A stretch of DNA of 64,000 bases from Candidatus Woesebacteria bacterium GW2011_GWF1_31_35 (GTDB lineage: Bacteria; Patescibacteriota; Microgenomatia; UBA8517). The notes below the pieces were generated by a model. The model saw only the letters and a list, made by a program, of their open reading frames with translations, made no database searches and was not told the DNA's origin. The position numbers and the translations under genes are program-made. Where the stretch lies: the NCBI GenBank assembly GCA_001029755.1, contig CP011214.1:200595-264594 (forward strand), read 5' to 3'. This document shows positions 11,004 through 33,712 of this stretch, in pieces. Position 1 is the first letter of the stretch, and every line of letters begins with the position of its first letter.

Positions 11004-12139
11004 CAATTTTCATTCCACTTATTATTTTAATAATATATTTTCTTTCTTCTGCTGGAAAAACACCATTTAATCACTTTACATTGCTTGCAGATTCTTTCTT
11101 AAAAGGACATTTATATATCGAAGGGGATTATCCTTGGCTCGAAAAAATTCCCATTGGTGACAATAAATTTTATGTAGCTAATCCTCCAATGCCAGCTATT
11201 CTCGCTATACCTTTTGTTTTTTTCTCAAATAAAAATTTCCCTCAACAGTATATTTCTCACATATTAGGTATGGGAATAATCGGATTAACAATGATTATGG
11301 CATATAGAATTAAAAAGAAATTAAGTTTAATGATTTGGTCAGGATTATTAATTGGACTAGGTTCCATAGTATGGTTTTTATCTTCAGTCGGTTCAGTTTG
11401 GTATCTTGGTCAAATTACCTCAGCATTCTTTTTAACTTGGGCATTAGTCGAAATATTAGGTAAATCAAGGCCAATATTACTAGGAATATTATTGGGCGCT
11501 ACCTTTCTTTCAAGAAGTCATGTTGCCTTAACTTTTCCGTTTATTGTCTTTATGAATTGGGAAAAGTTTAAAAATTTAAAACATTTAAACATATTAATTT
11601 TAGTTTTTTCAATCTTTGCCAGTTTTGGATTTTGGTATAACTTTGTAAGACTTGGAAATCCTTTTGACAATGGTTACAATCTGATTCCTGATGTCAGTAT
11701 ATCATCTTGGTTTGCTCAGGGTCTTTGGAACCCAATATATATACCCAAAAACTTTGATATATTATTTCTAAAAATGCCAGTAATTACAAATACTTTTCCT
11801 TATATTGTCCCATCTCTTGCTGGGATGTCTATAATTCTTACTACTCCTGCTTTTATTCACTCTTTCTTTGCTTCAATAAAAGATATCATCACAAAATTAT
11901 CGTGGATTTCCATTTTAATAATATTATTTATAGTATCCTCGCATGGTGGAACAGGATTCACACAATTCGGATATCGCTTTGCGGTTGACTTTTACCCCTT
12001 TTTAATGTTGCTTACAATTAAGGGTGTGGCCGAACACAACGGACCAAAATGGCACCACTGGTTGTTACTTATTATTTGTATAATTGTAAACACTTGGGGA
12101 GTATTATTTATTAATAAATTTGGCTGGGTAGGTTGGTAG
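10967..12139 (+). CDS. GT-C family membrane glycosyltransferase, tandem paralogue
   Basis: 390-aa polytopic protein with TQFGYRFAVDFYPFLM...NTWGVLFINKFGW, paralogous to the preceding ORF. The two overlap by 37 nt in different frames. Confidence 0.45.
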   Translation: MGSYMGNKFRLVTIFIPLIILIIYFLSSAGKTPFNHFTLLADSFLKGHLYIEGDYPWLEKIPIGDNKFYVANPPMPAILAIPFVFFSNKNFPQQYISHILGMGIIGLTMIMAYRIKKKLSLMIWSGLLIGLGSIVWFLSSVGSVWYLGQITSAFFLTWALVEILGKSRPILLGILLGATFLSRSHVALTFPFIVFMNWEKFKNLKHLNILILVFSIFASFGFWYNFVRLGNPFDNGYNLIPDVSISSWFAQGLWNPIYIPKNFDILFLKMPVITNTFPYIVPSLAGMSIILTTPAFIHSFFASIKDIITKLSWISILIILFIVSSHGGTGFTQFGYRFAVDFYPFLMLLTIKGVAEHNGPKWHHWLLLIICIIVNTWGVLFINKFGWVGW

Positions 12140-14003
12140 CGGTTTTTAAAATTAAAATTCCATTCTTATCATAAACAACCGGATAATCAAATCTTAATTT
12201 TTCTTCATTTATTAGATATTCTCTTCTTTCCCATCCACTTATATAAATGTAATTTATCCCAAATTTCTTTATCAGCTCTTTGTATCCATCTCTTGCATCG
12301 AAAATTGCCAAGATCGCCATTTCTTTATCAGTCGTATCAGTAATCCCGTGTGTCCACAAATAACCACCAAATCCTAGAAATATTTTACGACCAGATAAAG
12401 CAGTTATTATATTATTTGAGTTTCTTGCCGTTAGAAAAATCTCATTGGGACGACTGATCTCTCTAATTTCTTCGGCAATTATTAAATCATTTCTTTTAAA
12501 TATTCCACCGAGCATCCTTGGATCATTAATTGAAATTAGAATACCGGTAACGACTGATAAAAATAAAAAGCAGTAACCTAAAATTTTAACTACAATTATT
12601 TTACTTTCAATCAATTTAATTATTAAATATGAAGCTAAAATTGAAATCATTATATAAGGGTACAAAACAAATCTACTGTTGTCCCAAACATATGGCTGAA
12701 AGATAATTATATTAGCTAGAAATATAATAAATACGTTTACTAAAATAATGTTTCTATTTTTAAATATCTTTTTAAAAAACAACATTACTGATATTATTGA
12801 CCCAAACAAAAAAGGAATACCAAAATTAGTCAAATAGAAAAACAATTTATTATAAGTTCCATCAACAGGCGGCCATTCTGAAAAAGAAAATCTAATAAAG
12901 CTTTTAGATCCTAATGAAGTGAATATTACAGGTAAGATAAAGGCTCCGGAAACAATAAATATTAATAAGCCATATTTAATCCAAAAAAATAATTCTGATA
13001 TTTTTTTAGCTTTTATAGTTTCCGATACAACAACAAACAGAAGCGCTAAAGCAAAAACCAAAAAGGCATAAATATTTGCATATGGTAATAAACCTGCTAT
13101 AAATGCGCTTATAGCAAAGATTCTTAAATTTGTCTTATTGTTTATTAAAAGTATTAATAAATATGTAGCAAAAATCCAAAGTGGTACCCCCACAAGCAAA
13201 GTTCTTTGGGCCATAAGCATTTCGGCAAATATACCAGCATACCCAACGCCTAACTGAGGAAGGTAGGAGAAACGGGTCGTGGCATTGATATAAGTAGACA
13301 AAGGTAATTCATCTAATATAGGTTTTGTAAAACCTAATCCGCCATTAAAAAGAAACAAGAATACTGAAAGATAAGATGCCCTATTATTATTTAATATTTT
13401 AAAAGCCAATAAATAGAGGGAATTAACTAAGAGTAAACCAAAAATGGTAGAGGGAATAATTAGTGAATATCGTAATCCAGAACCTAAGACTAATAATTGA
13501 GCTGAAACAAAGTCAGCAACAAAATGATAATTAATGGTTTTAAAAGAAGCAATTGGGTTGATCGGAGGAAAATTATCTCCATAGGCGAAATTACTAATTA
13601 ACCCTAAATGAAAGGGTAAATCACCACTCGTCGAGGGACTACCGCTTAAATAAGATTCACCAGATTTTAAATGAGTTTGACTTATCACCAAACCAAAACA
13701 GATTAGCCAAAAAATATTAAACAATATATATCCTTTATCAAAACTTATTTTTAATTTGTAATTCTTAAACGTAAATAAATAAAGAGATATTCCACTAAGA
13801 AGCGTTATCCAAGTTGACATTTTGATAGAAAAGATATGACTCAAATAAAAAGATAATAATGCGTTTATTAAGATTCCGGTAAGCATAGAAAAAAATAACA
13901 ATTCTTTTGTATTTAAATGCTTTTGTTTAAAAAGTTTAAACAAAACAGTGAAACCTAAACAAAATGAGGATAGAAAATAAATAGATATATATACAAAACT
14001 CAT
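12111..14003 (-). CDS. Large polytopic membrane protein with C-terminal extracytoplasmic domain (putative GT-C glycosyltransferase)
   Basis: 630 aa: about 12 predicted TM helices followed by a roughly 170-aa soluble domain. It sits among the GT-C genes and the LCP gene. Confidence 0.35.
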   Translation of the reverse strand: MSFVYISIYFLSSFCLGFTVLFKLFKQKHLNTKELLFFSMLTGILINALLSFYLSHIFSIKMSTWITLLSGISLYLFTFKNYKLKISFDKGYILFNIFWLICFGLVISQTHLKSGESYLSGSPSTSGDLPFHLGLISNFAYGDNFPPINPIASFKTINYHFVADFVSAQLLVLGSGLRYSLIIPSTIFGLLLVNSLYLLAFKILNNNRASYLSVFLFLFNGGLGFTKPILDELPLSTYINATTRFSYLPQLGVGYAGIFAEMLMAQRTLLVGVPLWIFATYLLILLINNKTNLRIFAISAFIAGLLPYANIYAFLVFALALLFVVVSETIKAKKISELFFWIKYGLLIFIVSGAFILPVIFTSLGSKSFIRFSFSEWPPVDGTYNKLFFYLTNFGIPFLFGSIISVMLFFKKIFKNRNIILVNVFIIFLANIIIFQPYVWDNSRFVLYPYIMISILASYLIIKLIESKIIVVKILGYCFLFLSVVTGILISINDPRMLGGIFKRNDLIIAEEIREISRPNEIFLTARNSNNIITALSGRKIFLGFGGYLWTHGITDTTDKEMAILAIFDARDGYKELIKKFGINYIYISGWERREYLINEEKLRFDYPVVYDKNGILILKTATNLPSQIY

Positions 14004-15052
14004 AAAATATGATTATTTAACCACTCTTGAAAATCTTTCCAACTACCAGACTTTGGAATAAATACATATTGGTAATCATACTTTTTTAAATTTTGAGAGA
14101 TTTCTAAAAACTTTTCTGGGATTGAAAAGAAATTTATTTTGTTTCTAGATTCAAAGACCAATCTTCCCAATATTAGTAAAGACTTATTATCTAAATTAGT
14201 TTCTACATGAGAAAAGGTAATATCATAAATTTCTTTTAATTTTAAGGGGTTTAATATTATTTCTTTTGATAAAACTTTTTCCTTTATAGCACTAATAACT
14301 TTTTGTTGACGAATTTCTCTTGCCAAATCTGTTCCTTCCAGACCTTCTGAATTTCTACTTCTCACAAATTTTAATGCAGTTTCTCCATCCATTTTAGTAA
14401 CACCTTTTTCAAAAGAAACAGTTTCATATCTACAAGCATATGTTTTGGTTAAAGATAAATTTTGCTTATCATCTTCACATAGATCATTCTCTTTACCCGC
14501 AATTGGATACTTTGAATCTGTAAAGGAATTTTCAACCATCACATTTATTCCACCCAATGTATTTATCAAGTCTTTAAACAAAGAAAAATCTACAACTACT
14601 GTGTATGAAATTGGTATACTTGTTATTTCCTCTATACTTGTATTAACAAGTTCGAAATTATTATTAGATTTTTGTTTTCCCCAATAGTAAGCACTATTTA
14701 ATTTAGCGCGAATTGCAGGTACCCAAACATCTCTAGGAAGAGATAGTATATTTACTTTTTTTGAATTTTGGGAAAGAAATGCAATCATCATTGTATCTGT
14801 TAAATCAGGAGCCGTGTGGCCTTCTCCACCTTTACCTAAAATTAAAATTGATGTGATTCCATTTGAAGATTTAATATTTCCATAATCAAATTTAGAAAAA
14901 AAGATTGATCTTAAAACTAAGAAAAAGATAATTGGCAAAACTACCAAAATGACTAAAAATACCAGGACAACTTTATACTTACCCATGTTACTATTGTATT
15001 TGTTATGAACAACACAAGCAATATTATCAAAAGAGCCAATCAATTCACTCAC
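14000..15052 (-). CDS. LytR-CpsA-Psr (LCP) family cell-wall glycopolymer ligase
   Basis: N-terminal TM then ILILGKGGEGHTAPDLTDTMMIAFL...NILSLPRDVWV...DFSLFKDLINTLGGINV...DGETALKFVRSR, the LCP catalytic-domain pattern. The real start is probably the internal MGKYKVV. Confidence 0.8.
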   Translation of the reverse strand: MSELIGSFDNIACVVHNKYNSNMGKYKVVLVFLVILVVLPIIFFLVLRSIFFSKFDYGNIKSSNGITSILILGKGGEGHTAPDLTDTMMIAFLSQNSKKVNILSLPRDVWVPAIRAKLNSAYYWGKQKSNNNFELVNTSIEEITSIPISYTVVVDFSLFKDLINTLGGINVMVENSFTDSKYPIAGKENDLCEDDKQNLSLTKTYACRYETVSFEKGVTKMDGETALKFVRSRNSEGLEGTDLAREIRQQKVISAIKEKVLSKEIILNPLKLKEIYDITFSHVETNLDNKSLLILGRLVFESRNKINFFSIPEKFLEISQNLKKYDYQYVFIPKSGSWKDFQEWLNNHIL

Positions 15053-15100
15053 CTGTGGACCAAAAATGAAATTGAGTTTGTTACAAACAATATAAAGAAA

Positions 15101-15856
15101 ATGAGTTACAAAGAAATGGGTGCATTTATATCAAGAACTTCTCCATCAATTCAATCAAAGGTTCGATTTCTACCAATCCAACAAAAGGTTAATAAATATA
15201 AAATAAATCAAAAATTTTTTACCAAATGGTCTGAACCAATGGCTTATATATTAGGATTCATAACAGCAGATGGAAATATATGCAGGACAGGAAATTCACA
15301 CATGATCCAAATTGCCTGTGATGACAAAGATATAATAGAAAAAATCAAAATTGAATTATCTTGTGATACACCAATACAGATACGATCAAGACTAAATGGA
15401 AAATCATCCTATCAACTTAGATTTTCAGATAAACATATTTATCAAAATTTAATTAAACTTGGAATAACACCGAGAAAAAGTTTAACTATTAAACCACCTA
15501 TTAAAATACCTCATGTGTTTATTAATGATTATATTAGAGGTTTTTTTGATGGGGATGGTAGTGTTTGGATATCGAAGAGAACCAGACAAGAAAGGCTTGT
15601 TAGTGTTTTTTATACTGCAAGCATAAAAATGATTAAATTTATATTTGAAATAATAAAAAATAACTTTCCATTATTTACCGGAAAAATACAAAGAATACTC
15701 ACACCAAAGAAAAATAGATTCTATTATTCTATAACATTGGGACACAGGGATTCATTACTTTTGTATAAGTATATGTATAAAGGATCAAAAATATTTTCAA
15801 ACAGGAAACATAATATTTTCAAAAAAATATATGACAATCAATTTATCAGAGCTTAA
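15101..15856 (+). CDS. Free-standing double-motif LAGLIDADG homing endonuclease
   Basis: Two LAGLIDADG motifs (AYILGFITADGNI and IRGFFDGDGSVWI) in one chain. The ORF is open from 15005, but that start overlaps the convergent LCP gene, so the ATG at 15101 is preferred. The 3' end overlaps the pcrA start by 26 nt in another frame. Confidence 0.7.
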   Translation: MSYKEMGAFISRTSPSIQSKVRFLPIQQKVNKYKINQKFFTKWSEPMAYILGFITADGNICRTGNSHMIQIACDDKDIIEKIKIELSCDTPIQIRSRLNGKSSYQLRFSDKHIYQNLIKLGITPRKSLTIKPPIKIPHVFINDYIRGFFDGDGSVWISKRTRQERLVSVFYTASIKMIKFIFEIIKNNFPLFTGKIQRILTPKKNRFYYSITLGHRDSLLLYKYMYKGSKIFSNRKHNIFKKIYDNQFIRA

Positions 15857-17684
15857 TAAAGAACAATTAAGAGCAGTAACTTACACCAGCGGACCCCTAC
15901 TGGTCCTTGCTGGAGCCGGAAGTGGAAAAACAAAATGTCTAACATATCGGGTAGCTTTTTTTATATCTAAGCTAAAAGTACTTCCTGAAAATGTTTTATT
16001 AACCACCTTTACTAACAAAGCAGCCAAAGAAATGAAAGAAAGAATGAATGTTCTTTTAAACGAAGCAGGGCTACCTACTGATTCGGTTCAATCATTACAA
16101 GCTGGTACGTTTCATTCATTTTGCGCAAAAGTTCTAAGAATTGATGGAGAAGAAATAGGAATTTTTCCAAATTTTTTAATATATGATGAATCGGATCAAA
16201 AAGATTTGGTTAAAGAAATTATTAATGAATTAGGATTAAAGGAAAGTACTAAACCTTCTTCAATTTTATATGCTATTTCTGAAGCAAAAAACCAGATGCT
16301 TAACCCAGATGCCTATTTTGAAATAGCAAGGGGAGATATAGCCCAAACAGTTTTTCAAGTTTATAAATTATATGAAAAACGCCTTAAAGAAATAAATGCC
16401 TTGGATTTTGATGATTTACTTTTAAAAACAGTAAAACTTTTTGAAGTTCCCAAAGTTATTAATAAATGGAAAGAGAGAATAACCCAAATTTTTGTTGATG
16501 AATGGCAAGATACTAATAAAATTCAATATAGATTAATTAAATTATTAGATGGAAAAAGAGGTTGTATTACAGCTGTGGGAGATGCATCTCAAAGTATTTA
16601 TTCATGGAGGGGAGCAGATTTTAGAAATATTAATTATTTAATAAAAGATTATCCTACTATAAAGATTATTAATCTTGAACAAAACTATAGATCAACACAA
16701 AATATTTTAGATGCTGCAAATTCAGTTATACTTAAAAATACCTCACATCCAATATTGAGGCTTTGGACAGAAAAAAGCGGTGGAGAAAAAATTGTACTTT
16801 ATCCTGCCAGAAATGGGTTTGACGAAGCAGATTTTGTAGTAAAACAAATAAATAAACTCATTAAAAACGTAAAATATTCTGATATTGCGATTCTTTACAG
16901 AACTAACGCTCAATCCCGTGTTCTAGAAGAAGCCTTTCTTCATGCGGCAATTCCATATACCTTAGTAGGGGGAGTAAGATTTTATGACAGAAAAGAAATT
17001 AAAGACATACTTTGCTACTTAAGACTTTTGTTTAATCCAAAAGATTCAGTTTCAGAGAAAAGAGCCGTGGCACTAGGAAAAAGAAGATATGAAAGTTTTA
17101 AAGAAATTAGAGATATTGATAAAAAAACAACTTTAGAAATATTAGATGAAATTATTCAAAAAACTGAGTATTTAACAAAATTTAAAGAAGATGACCCAGA
17201 GGATTTGCCAAGACTTGAAAACATTAAAGAATTAAGGTCTGTTGCGTTAGAATTTCCTGAACTTTTAGAATTTTTAGAAAATGTATCTTTAGTTGAAGCT
17301 GGTCCAATTAATGAAAATGGTAATGCGGTTACTTTAATGACCCTACATTCTGCTAAGGGGTTAGAATTTCCTGTTGTTTTTATTGTTGGCATGGAAGAAG
17401 GACTTTTCCCTCATTCAAGAGCTCTTTGGGAGAAAGAACAACTTGAAGAGGAAAGACGTTTAGCCTACGTTGGTATAACAAGAGCTAAAGATACACTTTT
17501 TTTAACATATGCCAGTAAACGACTTTACTTTGGAGAAAAAATCAGTAATCCTCCTTCAAGATTTATTTCAGACATCCCAGAACATTTATTAGATGGAAAA
17601 ATAATAAGGTTTGAGGAAGAAAGGGTAGAAATATCAAATGATGACCTTAACTTTGATGATATATTGGATAAATATTTAAAATGA
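15831..17684 (+). CDS. pcrA: UvrD/PcrA-type ATP-dependent DNA helicase (short form)
   Basis: N-terminal LNKEQLRAVTYTSGPLLVLAGAGSGKTKCLTYRVAFF (Walker A), DEWQDTN (motif II) and the later UvrD motifs. At 617 aa it lacks the C-terminal extension. Confidence 0.85.
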   Translation: MTINLSELNKEQLRAVTYTSGPLLVLAGAGSGKTKCLTYRVAFFISKLKVLPENVLLTTFTNKAAKEMKERMNVLLNEAGLPTDSVQSLQAGTFHSFCAKVLRIDGEEIGIFPNFLIYDESDQKDLVKEIINELGLKESTKPSSILYAISEAKNQMLNPDAYFEIARGDIAQTVFQVYKLYEKRLKEINALDFDDLLLKTVKLFEVPKVINKWKERITQIFVDEWQDTNKIQYRLIKLLDGKRGCITAVGDASQSIYSWRGADFRNINYLIKDYPTIKIINLEQNYRSTQNILDAANSVILKNTSHPILRLWTEKSGGEKIVLYPARNGFDEADFVVKQINKLIKNVKYSDIAILYRTNAQSRVLEEAFLHAAIPYTLVGGVRFYDRKEIKDILCYLRLLFNPKDSVSEKRAVALGKRRYESFKEIRDIDKKTTLEILDEIIQKTEYLTKFKEDDPEDLPRLENIKELRSVALEFPELLEFLENVSLVEAGPINENGNAVTLMTLHSAKGLEFPVVFIVGMEEGLFPHSRALWEKEQLEEERRLAYVGITRAKDTLFLTYASKRLYFGEKISNPPSRFISDIPEHLLDGKIIRFEEERVEISNDDLNFDDILDKYLK

Positions 17685-18644: not shown

Positions 18645-19543
18645 TGACAGATATTCGTCAAACTCTTGAGTATGCCAATTATTTAAAATCTAATGGTTGG
18701 ATAGTAGAAAGAATTAATGGAATTAACTATTTTATTAAAAAATTACCCTTACTGGGAAGTATATTAAAACTTCAAAGGCCAAAAGAAATTGATTTTAAAA
18801 TAATAAAAAAATTATCCAAAAAGTATGGAGTATTTCAAACAATTATTGAACCCGATTTAGGAATTACCGTCTCCCTGAAGGGTAACCCCTCCAACACTAG
18901 GCCCTTCACTAAGAACAAATCCATCCATGATTTAATGTTATCACGCGGCTTTAAATTGTCAAAAAGTCCATATCTACCCACAAAAACACTGCAAATTGAT
19001 TTATCTCAAACTCAAAAACAAATTTTTGAAAAATTTAGTAAAGACTGCCGATACAGCATCCGAAAGGGAAGTGGTCTTATTATTAAAGAATACTCGACCC
19101 CAGAAGAAATAAAAAAATTTAGAAATGCATGGAAAAATTCTGTTAATTTTAAAAGATTTGTACCATCCGTAAAACAACTAATAAACTTAAAGAAATGTTT
19201 TCCTCGTAATTACTCTACTTTCTTAGCGTCGCACAATAATCTTGGCAATATTATAGGAGGAGCGATTTTCACGCGCTCTGCTAGAGATTTTTCATACTAT
19301 TGGCAAGCATTTACTAACTATGAGGGTAGGACATCCCTATCACAATACCCACTTCTCTATCATGGAATACTATGGGCAAAAAAACAAGGTTGTAAAGTTT
19401 TTGACTTTGAAGGAATATATGATTTCAGGTTTCCAAATAAAAATTGGCTGGGTTTTACTCATTTTAAAAAATCATTTAGTGGAAGTGAAATTCTCTACCC
19501 TGGCTGTTATACTAAATTTAATCTACTAAAAGATGGGGAATAA
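18644..19543 (+). CDS. FemAB/FemX-family aminoacyltransferase, tandem paralogue
   Basis: CRYSIRKGSGLIIKEY, FSYYWQAF and FDFEGIYD blocks parallel the preceding gene. Its start overlaps the upstream stop (ATGA). Confidence 0.6.
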   Translation: MTDIRQTLEYANYLKSNGWIVERINGINYFIKKLPLLGSILKLQRPKEIDFKIIKKLSKKYGVFQTIIEPDLGITVSLKGNPSNTRPFTKNKSIHDLMLSRGFKLSKSPYLPTKTLQIDLSQTQKQIFEKFSKDCRYSIRKGSGLIIKEYSTPEEIKKFRNAWKNSVNFKRFVPSVKQLINLKKCFPRNYSTFLASHNNLGNIIGGAIFTRSARDFSYYWQAFTNYEGRTSLSQYPLLYHGILWAKKQGCKVFDFEGIYDFRFPNKNWLGFTHFKKSFSGSEILYPGCYTKFNLLKDGE

Positions 19544-33639: not shown

Positions 33640-33712
33640 GACCAGGTGGTGAAGTGGCTAACACGGCGGTCTGCAAAACCGCTACTCGTGGGTTCAAATC
33701 CCACCCTGGTCT
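33640..33712 (+). tRNA. tRNA-Cys (anticodon GCA)
   Basis: Cloverleaf: acceptor GACCAGG/CCTGGTC, anticodon stem GCGGT/ACCGC with loop CTGCAAA, T-arm GTGGG-TTCAAAT-CCCAC. CCA is not encoded. Confidence 0.8.

Follow-up and report, generated by a model that had tools for sequence, protein, structure and literature searches.

What is a homing endonuclease gene doing directly in front of a bacterial helicase gene, and how is it kept there? We examined a window of 64,000 nucleotides from Candidatus Woesebacteria bacterium GW2011_GWF1_31_35 (contig CP011214.1), in which a LAGLIDADG homing endonuclease (HE) gene is wedged between an LCP gene and pcrA. The original prediction for this locus proposed either domestication or a selfish element exploiting pcrA expression.

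A free-standing LAGLIDADG gene at the pcrA start

The HE gene (15005..15856, forward strand) begins with ATG and encodes a single-chain, two-domain protein of 283 amino acids, in agreement with the predicted independent double-motif gene except that the end had been placed at 15900, 44 nt beyond the actual stop at 15856. An HMM search, recommended at the outset, identified LAGLIDADG_3 in Pfam (E=8.6e-9) above the gathering score, and a PDB sequence search matched the protein to 2dch (I-Tsp061I; E=4e-7). The AlphaFold model (pLDDT 88.6) has the order of secondary structures expected of a two-domain LAGLIDADG protein, and its best Foldseek matches are I-Tsp061I, I-AniI, the bI3 maturase, I-OnuI, and I-SceI, each with a probability of 1.00. 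Membership in the LAGLIDADG superfamily is far beyond chance.

Motif 1 (AYILGFITADGNI, aa 80-92, 15242..15280, forward strand) includes Asp89 (codon 15269-15271), and motif 2 (IRGFFDGDGSVWI, aa 177-189, 15533..15571, forward strand) includes Asp184 (codon 15554-15556). To judge these residues we aligned 26 homologs (45-67% identity) of a family with ~70 full-length members. D89 and G90 of motif 1 and D182, G183, D184, and G185 of motif 2 are invariant in 26/26, so the metal-binding acidic residue that ends each LAGLIDADG helix (D89, D184) is present throughout. The catalytic acids had been singled out for a check for inactivating substitutions, and they are intact. It is thus very improbable that the protein is a catalytically dead remnant, or one that merely binds DNA, hitch-hiking with recombination at the variable 5' end of pcrA; such a reading is at odds with the conservation of these and many other positions in 26 sequences down to 45% identity, and an open reading frame without drive or function would decay.

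A three-helix helix-turn-helix (HTH) module precedes the LAGLIDADG domains (aa 12-60, NQFTHxWT...SIQSKVRFL, 15038..15184, forward strand; helices at aa 20-29, 35-42, and 46-55) and is common to the ~70 full-length homologs, with N12, Q13, W18, E22, Y35, Q50, S51, and R54 invariant. It is probably an extra DNA-binding domain, named HTH from its modelled fold and residue pattern. We could not assign it to a family, since Pfam at E<=10 gave sub-threshold matches only (Sigma70_r4_2, Myb, HTH_38), a PDB profile search gave a non-significant match to the HTH of LrpC, and Foldseek with a separate model of the module returned Myb, Tc3, GcrA, and homeodomain folds, all with E>0.8. The GenBank model of the HE (P0001) is 251 aa long and starts at M33. 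We favour the start at 15005 because the NQFTHPW block at aa 12-18 is conserved; judged from this conservation, the GenBank annotation cuts off part of the N-terminal module.

An Rfam scan of the whole window at the gathering threshold found no group I or group II intron, its sole match being one tRNA at 33640, and a Pfam scan found no Hint/intein domain. This rules out an intron or intein setting, as the original prediction had stated, and since the HE is also a separate open reading frame in a frame different from that of pcrA, the gene is free-standing. A search for further HE copies within the window found none. Codon usage had been proposed as a check on insertion; it gave no signal, and neither did GC content, the values being ordinary (GC 0.274 versus 0.307±0.032, GC3 0.212 versus 0.180±0.035, codon distance 0.449 versus 0.424±0.112 for genes of similar size).

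Probable promoter takeover and overlap with the helicase gene

The genes flanking the HE are cellular (LCP, pcrA, and FemAB). To its left is the LytR_cpsA_psr glycopolymer transferase gene (14000..14986, reverse strand; Pfam PF03816, E=2.7e-30), part of the host backbone and the divergent neighbour of pcrA in ~75 empty-site loci. Its likely start, MGKYK at 14986, lies 18 nt from the HE ATG, and the two genes are divergent. To the right is the host gene of the element, a pcrA/uvrD-family SF1 helicase of 617 aa (15831..17684, forward strand), identified with Pfam (UvrD-helicase 2.3e-81, UvrD_C 1.8e-70) and NCBIfam. The best NCBIfam model is TIGR01073 pcrA, whose 715 bits fall below the equivalog cut-off of 911, and we therefore refer to a short PcrA-like helicase.

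The predicted position between the LCP gene and pcrA, with a 26-nt overlap in a different frame, is borne out. The overlap (15831..15856, forward strand) encodes a replacement pcrA start and the first 8 codons (MTINLSEL), and a stop/start arrangement of this kind would permit translational coupling from the HE to pcrA. Coupling to pcrA had been called unusual; it is real but not peculiar to this genome, as all 12 of 12 filled loci have an overlap of 1-26 nt (1-25 nt outside the window).

Upstream, the HE ATG is preceded by what appears from comparative conservation to be the native promoter-proximal segment of pcrA (14986..15004, forward strand). This segment contains an extended -10-like TGtTACTAT at 14986-14994, 10 nt ahead of the HE ATG, and from this position the HE mRNA would be leaderless or nearly so. 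The sequence CATGTTACTATTGTA...ATG lies directly before the pcrA ATG in the empty loci L081, L083, L085-L087, and L091-L093, and directly before the HE ATG in the filled window, L161, L163, and L088. The first ~6 HE codons (ATGAACAACACAAGCAAT, 15005..15022, forward strand) also resemble, in a DNA alignment, the native pcrA start of empty alleles (L081, ATGGATACAAGCAAG), and the HE start of L161 (ATGGACAATACAAGCAAT) is likewise similar to the pcrA start ATGGATACAAGCAAG of L081 and L092. The HE reading frame thus appears to be joined to what was once the initiation region of pcrA. Our statement on the promoter is based solely on this comparative conservation, because a generic sigma-70 scan was uninformative (15 sites versus 15.2 expected). 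A terminator scan found none between the HE and pcrA reading frames, and the HE is probably a promoter-less cassette within the pcrA transcription unit. This arrangement matches the proposal of a selfish element that exploits pcrA expression, the HE standing behind native pcrA promoter-proximal sequence while its 3' end supplies the pcrA start.

Filled and empty sites

The first five genome hits all had the same synteny, which suggested strict orthology or domestication, although they had been picked by the HE search itself. That interpretation was dropped after sampling centred on pcrA showed most sites to be empty. Three of the 80 closest metagenomic pcrA loci (PcrA identity 62-90%) contain the HE (L088, L122, and L141), and ~96% lack it; after dereplication, 68 distinct empty alleles remain. 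In L081, the closest relative, the site is empty and clean, and the surrounding backbone is 86-99% identical to the window at the nucleotide level. Uniform orthologous presence at the lytR-pcrA junction, the comparison first proposed for this locus, was thus not found. Filled loci with context are L001-L005, L088, L122, L141, and L161-L166, and all 12 of 12 close HE homologs directly precede pcrA and overlap it in a stop/start arrangement. In a PcrA phylogenetic tree the filled loci are scattered: the window is sister to the empty L081, L088 falls among empty loci, and L122 and L141 fall within another empty clade. A profile search with --max found no HE remnants at the empty sites. The classical life cycle of homing endonuclease genes (HEGs) predicts some degenerate copies, and none were seen.

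By these comparisons the HE gene is not conserved at the pcrA site. The sampled loci describe an apparent LAGLIDADG_3 subfamily tied to a single site, the pcrA 5' end, in Microgenomates (Woesebacteria, Levybacteria, Daviesbacteria, and relatives). The polymorphism supports the predicted mobility of the gene, and the insertion can be called recent only relative to the ~5-7% by which the backbones of the window and L081 have diverged.

The same distribution makes it improbable that the protein has been domesticated, in the sense of a LAGLIDADG and HTH protein that acts with or regulates PcrA and is kept by host selection, for example by serving the helicase as a nuclease partner or by autoregulating the operon in the manner of WhiA or I-TevI. 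The gene is dispensable, being absent even from a relative with 95% identity in the backbone part of PcrA, and its occurrence is scattered rather than clade-wide. The catalytic acidic residues are retained, unlike those of WhiA (PMC3384342). Consistent with a host function are the constant placement of the HE in what is probably one transcription unit with pcrA, with probable translational coupling, the strong purifying selection along its full length including the HTH module, and a pseudogene search that found none. Domestication, one of the two original possibilities, accordingly fits the locus poorly.

A recombination tract linked to the endonuclease

Comparison of the window with L081 reveals a mosaic. 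To the left of the HE, on the LCP side, nucleotide identity is 86-98% right up to the HE start; it is 57-74%, with indels, over pcrA nt 1-270, and 90-99% from ~16100 on. In the PcrA protein, identity is 63% over aa 10-90 and 95% over aa 95-600. The first ~90 codons of pcrA (15831..16100, forward strand) are thus foreign to the backbone shared with L081, as expected of a co-conversion tract, and the HE would move in or out of the site along with them. A comparable 5' dip of ~180 nt is present in L088 versus L085, L087, and L092 and in L122 versus L112 and L134, and was not seen in empty/empty control pairs.

HE-linked pcrA alleles from independent host clades have a common 5' haplotype (MxI[ND]LSxLN, Y39, EN[VI]LLTTF) that their empty sisters are without. 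Every HE-linked allele has Y at residue 39, where 57 empty alleles have H, and residue 55 is I or V with LLTTFTNKA in HE-linked alleles versus A or C with LLLTFTNKA in empties. The HE-linked substitutions Y39, V55, and T58 (15945-15947, 15993-15995, and 16002-16004, forward strand) mark a candidate target and immunity region at the codons of pcrA motifs I-Ia (15921..16020, forward strand), which falls within the minimal ~180-nt tract common to three lineages. We infer that the HE target site may lie at these codons.

Tract and HE are not always one inherited block, because L161 and L088 have 5' tracts that are 91% identical and HEs that are only 67% identical. The nearest homolog of the window HE is 67% identical, and the 5' tract of the window pcrA is about equally far (71-75%) from all sampled alleles. 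A donor search, for which the nearest HE homologs P0002, P0003, and P0005 were fetched with context, identified none, and a transfer has thus not been caught between sampled genomes.

HE divergence follows the divergence of the host backbone PcrA (Spearman 0.75), and no HE pair among the sampled loci exceeds 74% identity. These two observations also fit long vertical residence with losses. An HE could have been upstream of pcrA in the common Microgenomates ancestor, with vertical descent, many losses, and an end to homing; fully ameliorated codon usage and the failure of the donor search are consistent with this history as well. We nevertheless consider it unlikely. It requires no fewer than about 8-10 independent losses in the sampled tree, all of them perfectly clean, and it leaves unexplained both the derived pcrA 5' residues of filled alleles in three separate host clades, which the empty sisters are without, and the sharp step in identity from 57-74% to 90-99% at ~16100. 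A HEG that no longer homes would also be expected to decay, whereas every copy is intact and the catalytic residues do not vary. If losses came about by conversion from empty alleles, this would mirror homing, and on that point the two models cannot be separated.

Proposed intronless homing at pcrA

We conclude that the HE is probably an active or recently active selfish free-standing HEG specialised for the 5' end of pcrA in Microgenomates. The cassette occupies the exact position of the normal pcrA start, its ATG behind native promoter-proximal sequence and its last codons giving a replacement pcrA start (M-x-I-[ND]-L-S-x-L-N), so that the helicase would still be made from the same transcript as a second, translationally coupled cistron. 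By analogy with the intronless homing of T4 seg and mob genes, the enzyme may cleave pcrA alleles that lack the HE, within their first ~180 nt, at the codons of motifs I-Ia; the recombination tract and linked haplotype point indirectly to site-specific double-strand cleavage of this kind. After resection, the break would be repaired from an HE-carrying allele, for example on DNA taken up from a related cell, and repair would copy the HEG together with the adjoining 180-270 nt of donor pcrA. Substitutions in the donor tract (Y39, [VI]55, T58, and linked silent changes) would then make the filled allele immune. For the window lineage, a single gain after the split from L081 is proposed, reverse conversion in L081 being less parsimonious. 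The window/L081 pattern supports, at the level of sequence comparison, intronless homing with co-conversion by a LAGLIDADG enzyme in a bacterial chromosome.

Comparison with known homing systems

Free-standing HEGs are cassettes that have no promoter of their own and are often translationally coupled; they cleave away from the position they occupy, and flanking DNA is co-converted as they spread (PMC2988022). The T4 seg (GIY-YIG) and mob (HNH) genes share with the pcrA-linked HE a stand-alone position between conserved genes, the promoter-less cassette, the start/stop overlap, a sporadic occurrence among relatives, and flanking host sequence that travels along (PMC2988022). They are GIY-YIG or HNH enzymes of a phage, whereas the pcrA-linked HE is a LAGLIDADG_3 protein of a CPR bacterial chromosome. 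The T4 genes are located in intergenic spacers and cut hundreds to thousands of bp away, while the pcrA-linked HE replaces the start and first codons of an essential-type neighbour and would cut within ~180 nt.

Among LAGLIDADG enzymes, I-Tsp061I (2dch), I-DmoI, I-AniI, I-SceI, and I-OnuI are encoded in introns and cleave where the intron inserts, in contrast to the free-standing HE, which carries an additional N-terminal HTH and is 12-21% identical to archaeal and organellar single-chain LAGLIDADG enzymes. A variable N-terminal non-domain region has been described in LAGLIDADG_3 proteins (Tsurumaki et al. 2024, PMC11270868). The LAGLIDADG enzymes of CPR rRNA insertion sequences (for example, I-ShaI) share the host group, the superfamily, and a patchy, site-specific distribution that was read as homing (PMC11270868). 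Those enzymes are mostly single-domain (homodimeric) LAGLIDADG_1/_2 proteins in group I/II-like introns of 16S and 23S rRNA (PMC11270868), whereas the pcrA-linked HE is a double-domain LAGLIDADG_3 protein outside introns and linked to a protein-coding gene.

WhiA/DUF199 proteins also combine a LAGLIDADG scaffold with an HTH, and WhiA structures are at Foldseek ranks 39-43 for the HE. The HTH of WhiA-like proteins is C-terminal and their occurrence lineage-wide; in the pcrA-linked HE it is N-terminal, the distribution is sporadic, and the acidic residues, which WhiA-like domesticated regulators have lost (PMC3384342), are invariant. In Pfam, no WhiA model matches the HE protein of the window.

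LAGLIDADG genes of a sister clade adjoin genes for tRNA-Cys/Leu, tRNA-Asp, and tRNA-Met in Parcubacteria and Saccharibacteria. An origin of these nearest non-family relatives from rRNA introns was rejected, as Rfam found no rRNA at 12 sister loci, only tRNAs and two group I introns ~3 kb away.

Implications

To our knowledge, nearly everything established about free-standing HEGs and intronless homing comes from the GIY-YIG and HNH enzymes of T-even phages, and LAGLIDADG genes of CPR bacteria have so far been described only inside rRNA introns. The locus would represent a LAGLIDADG enzyme that uses the free-standing strategy in a cellular chromosome. Its design is unusually economical, in that host promoter and initiation region would be taken over and a new pcrA start given through the overlapping stop and start.

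We tentatively raise the possibility that the pcrA-linked subfamily and the tRNA-adjacent sister clade together form an unrecognised CPR radiation of chromosomal, intron-less LAGLIDADG gene-drive cassettes. If so, each cassette would have adapted to a neighbouring gene that is highly conserved and would spread between cells by DNA uptake and recombination. At pcrA we would then have the first HEG in nature seen to take over both the promoter and the start codon of an essential-type gene and to rewrite the 5' end of that gene. An extension of this reading, in which the nuclease also gained a role with PcrA as a helicase-nuclease pair, is less likely still.

The analysis corrects a truncated HE gene model and would explain the mosaic 5' ends of pcrA in these genomes. 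For a candidate meganuclease it predicts a target within ~180 bp, at pcrA motifs I-Ia. The window and L081 provide a natural pair of filled and empty sites with a mapped recombination tract, which directly indicates that uncultivated, ultra-small bacteria exchange genes by homologous recombination.

The endonuclease gene and its protein family

In this genome of about 30% GC, the ORF at 15005..15856 (+) encodes a 283-aa protein whose translation carries two LAGLIDADG motifs, AYILGFITADGNI (aa 80-92) and IRGFFDGDGSVWI (aa 177-189). A database protein 100% identical to it comes from Candidatus Woesebacteria bacterium RIFOXYC1_FULL_31_51. In Pfam the protein exceeds the gathering threshold of LAGLIDADG_3 (E=8.6e-9), and its sequence also matches the intron-encoded endonuclease I-Tsp061I (2dch, E=4e-7). 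Foldseek returns I-Tsp061I, I-AniI, the bI3 maturase, I-OnuI, and I-SceI with probability 1.00, and WhiA only far down the list. Rfam detects no intron in the window and the protein contains no intein domain, and the homing endonuclease (HE) gene is thus free-standing. All particulars of the original prediction of such a gene, wedged between the LytR_cpsA_psr (LCP) gene and pcrA, hold except for its end coordinate, which lies at 15856. At window 15005-15100, the GenBank model ('hypothetical protein A2422_04385', 251 aa) starts only at Met33, which removes half of a conserved N-terminal helix-turn-helix (HTH) module. Since a block conserved in the family alignment (NQFTHPW, aa 12-18) precedes that start, the ATG at 15005 is supported.

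A protein search with the HE recovered 677 relatives. About 70 full-length clusters (260-285 aa) are 45-67% identical to it, and their sources are all CPR/Patescibacteria. The catalytic residues are intact; D89 and D184, the acidic ends of both LAGLIDADG helices, are invariant together with their glycines in a 26-sequence alignment, as are approximately 30 further positions. The N-terminal module (aa ~12-60) folds into three helices. Its matches to HTH-type Pfam domains (Sigma70_r4_2, Myb, and HTH_38) and to the LrpC HTH are all sub-threshold, and structural comparisons with Myb-like, Tc3 transposase, GcrA, and homeodomain folds all gave E>0.8. The module is probably an accessory DNA-binding HTH, without family assignment.

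Archaeal relatives with 32-35% identity are present in Woesearchaeota, Methanobrevibacter, and Heimdallarchaeota (loci L013 5977-6807, L030 5887-6729, and L078 4289-5215). These are free-standing genes that retain a Myb-like N-terminal module and the double LAGLIDADG architecture. The Methanobrevibacter gene has putative virus or provirus structural genes as neighbours, and the Heimdallarchaeota protein has an additional Cys-rich C-terminal tail.

Occurrence upstream of pcrA

The gene downstream of the HE (15831..17684, +) encodes a UvrD/PcrA-family helicase; the two ORFs overlap by 26 nt in different frames, and the LCP transferase gene is the divergent upstream neighbour. All five close relatives in a species-representative genome collection (L001-L005; Levybacteria and other Patescibacteria, 46-52% identity to the HE) likewise lie directly upstream of pcrA, with the HE stop running over the pcrA start by 1-11 nt, femAB downstream, and the LCP and a tpiA-like gene upstream. 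The nearest homologs by sequence (P0002, P0003, and P0005, 63-67%) share this arrangement with overlaps of 11-25 nt, so coupling to pcrA is a constant of this site-specific family and no quirk of the window genome.

The window's helicase is short for PcrA (617 aa versus a 725-position model), and its 715 bits against TIGR01073 fall under the equivalog cut-off of 911. The name PcrA/UvrD-family helicase suits it best. Related loci also encode a separate AddA-like UvrD+PDDEXK_1 protein (936 aa) a few kilobases downstream on the opposite strand. In two Hainich groundwater assemblies carrying the same HE as L088 and L166 (L164 and L165, 4794-7328; compare L166, 4827-7614), a deletion of ~286 nt joins pcrA and the first femAB gene in one frame, producing a single 844-aa ORF, and the gene calls of the source include no pcrA at this place. 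The fusion may truly exist in the population or may be an assembly artefact common to both.

Because L001-L005 and the loci of P0002, P0003, and P0005 had been picked via the HE, sampling was also done in reverse, centred on pcrA. Among 80 metagenomic pcrA loci retrieved with the window PcrA (62-90% identity), only three are filled, with the HE upstream of pcrA (L088, L122, and L141); in the others the LCP gene is directly adjacent to pcrA. Within 1.6 kb upstream of pcrA, a sensitive profile search detected no HE remnants at the empty sites, which dereplicate to 68 distinct alleles. A PcrA tree that omits the first 20 residues scatters the filled loci: the window's sister and closest relative is the empty L081, L088 sits among empty loci, and L122 and L141 form a pair within another empty clade. 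This presence/absence polymorphism supports mobility, and the patchy occurrence contradicts a conserved, domesticated gene, the alternative originally raised. A host function of the HE is unlikely, given its absence from ~96% of the nearest relatives.

Exchange of the HE together with the 5' end of pcrA

Comparison of the window with L081, which lacks the HE, delimits the exchanged segment. Their backbones are closely similar (LCP 89%, FemAB 94%, and PcrA residues 95-600 95% identical), and nucleotide identity is 86-98% across the LCP gene up to the HE start codon. From pcrA nt 1 to ~270, identity is only 57-74%, with several indels, and at ~16100 (codons for AGTFHSFC) it steps up to 90-99% for the following 2.7 kb. 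Since identity drops within it and is high outside, a segment of ~1.1 kb, comprising the HE and ~90 pcrA codons, is of other origin than its surroundings. The same dip in 5' pcrA, over ~180 nt, separates L088 from its nearest empty relatives (L085, L087, and L092) and L122 from L112 and L134, and is not seen in empty/empty control pairs.

Filled alleles of every host clade share the PcrA N-terminus M-x-[IVLF]-[ND]-L-x-x-L-[ND]. At residue 39 all have Tyr, against His in 57 empty alleles, and they carry EN[VI]LL[TS]TFTNKA where the empties have EN[CA]LLLTFTNKA. As these derived states are shared in independent clades, the HE and the pcrA 5' end form a linked unit exchanged between backbones, which is the pattern of co-conversion known from homing (PMC2988022). 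The linkage is not absolute, since L161 and L088 are 91% identical in the tract and only 67% in their HEs.

Parsimony on the tree and the HE-linked haplotype favour a gain in the window as the event separating it from L081; had an empty allele instead converted L081, the pattern would be the same. Two other discontinuities with L081 are further recombination mosaics in the neighbourhood. Homology ends abruptly at the LCP 3' end (~14000; window 12111-14003 versus L081 1-2970), where the window's 630-aa multi-pass membrane protein is not found at the corresponding L081 position, and the second femAB gene contains another short divergent patch (18825-18945, 42-60% identity).

Architecture of the cassette

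Empty sites in the window's clade have CATGTTACTATTGTA(n5-8)ATG ahead of pcrA, with the CAT marking where LCP starts on the opposite strand and TGtTACTAT, ~10 nt from the ATG, resembling an extended -10 element. The same string stands before the HE ATG, rather than that of pcrA, in the window, L161, L163, and L088. The first HE codons (ATG-AAC-AAC-ACA-AGC-AAT in the window's clade; in L161, ATG-GAC-AAT-ACA-AGC-AAT) are similar to those with which pcrA begins in the empty L081 and L092 (ATG-GAT-ACA-AGC-AAG), and the HE ORF therefore appears to be fused to the original pcrA initiation region. The 3' end of the HE overlaps the new ATG and first codons of pcrA, and no terminator-like structure was found between the two genes. 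Because the native upstream string is reused and the overlap lacks a terminator, the cassette would need no promoter or ribosome-loading site of its own; the HE probably uses the native promoter, with pcrA expressed as a coupled second cistron. A second HE clade (L001-L003 and L005) has a conserved TTGTTATAATACTATA right before the HE ATG, a putatively similar leaderless-type arrangement.

Extended -10-like elements (TGnTAGAAT or TGnTACTAT) occur 7-12 nt before the pcrA or HE ATG in most Microgenomates compared, including the sites ahead of pcrA in L094-L154 (e.g., gTGtTAGAATgatcaagcATG) and window 14986-15007. These starts have no Shine-Dalgarno sequence, suggesting that the mRNAs are leaderless.

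Probable intronless homing and the age of the element

Intronless homing is the best-supported reading of the pcrA-linked HE, and the proposal of a mobile selfish gene exploiting pcrA expression is both supported and sharpened. The nuclease would cut HE-less pcrA alleles within the first ~180 nt, the shortest tract that three lineages have in common. Prime candidates for the cut site are the codons for KTKVLTHR and ENCLLLTFTNKA. The break would be resected and then repaired from a filled allele, possibly on DNA taken up from a related cell, and this would copy in the HE gene along with 180-270 nt of the donor's pcrA. Copied substitutions in the motif I-Ia codons would protect the new filled allele.

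The element is old. Divergence of the HE correlates with that of the backbone (Spearman 0.75), none of the sampled HE pairs exceeds 74% identity, no donor of the window's 5' tract was found, and HE codon usage is ordinary, with no insertion signal. These same observations also fit vertical inheritance with losses, which may have contributed but as the model for the locus is unlikely. Exchange is probably mainly among related hosts, in line with a process dependent on flanking homology.

Relation to known systems

The HE resembles the free-standing seg/mob endonucleases of phage T4, whose promoter-less cassettes are translationally coupled, move with co-conversion, and are sporadically distributed (PMC2988022); in the HE the coupling is predicted. 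It does not belong to those families, because its nuclease is LAGLIDADG and its replicon a bacterial chromosome. Its fold and catalytic residues place it in the LAGLIDADG endonuclease superfamily, but without the usual intron or intein host. It differs from WhiA (PMC3384342) in keeping the catalytic residues, in the placement of the HTH, and in its sporadic distribution. In the CPR literature consulted, LAGLIDADG genes are reported only within rRNA insertion sequences and are mostly single-domain (PMC11270868), and tRNA introns of Patescibacteria, when surveyed, yielded few homing endonuclease genes (PMC13011429); neither study mentions free-standing copies or pcrA.

Free-standing LAGLIDADG genes of Parcubacteria, Paceibacterota, and Saccharibacteria make up a sister family (L006-L080). 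They share 30-39% identity with the HE core, and most have no N-terminal module. They typically lie beside tRNA genes, as in L006 (6001-6657, followed by tRNA-Cys at +6 nt) and in L011, L012, L037, L050, L061, and L077 (tRNA-Asp at +2 to +16 nt). A same-strand tRNA is present within 300 nt downstream in 34 of 75 loci (first tRNA Leu in 17, Cys in 8, and Asp in 7) and one, mostly tRNA-Met, within 400 nt upstream in 29 of 75; none of the loci is in rRNA. By analogy with T4 SegB, these genes may be further intronless-homing cassettes that target tRNA genes.

In its mechanism, the free-standing LAGLIDADG HE at pcrA extends homing biology that is already known. As a natural example it is a clean one from a little-studied phylum, with its tract mapped and its target open to testing.
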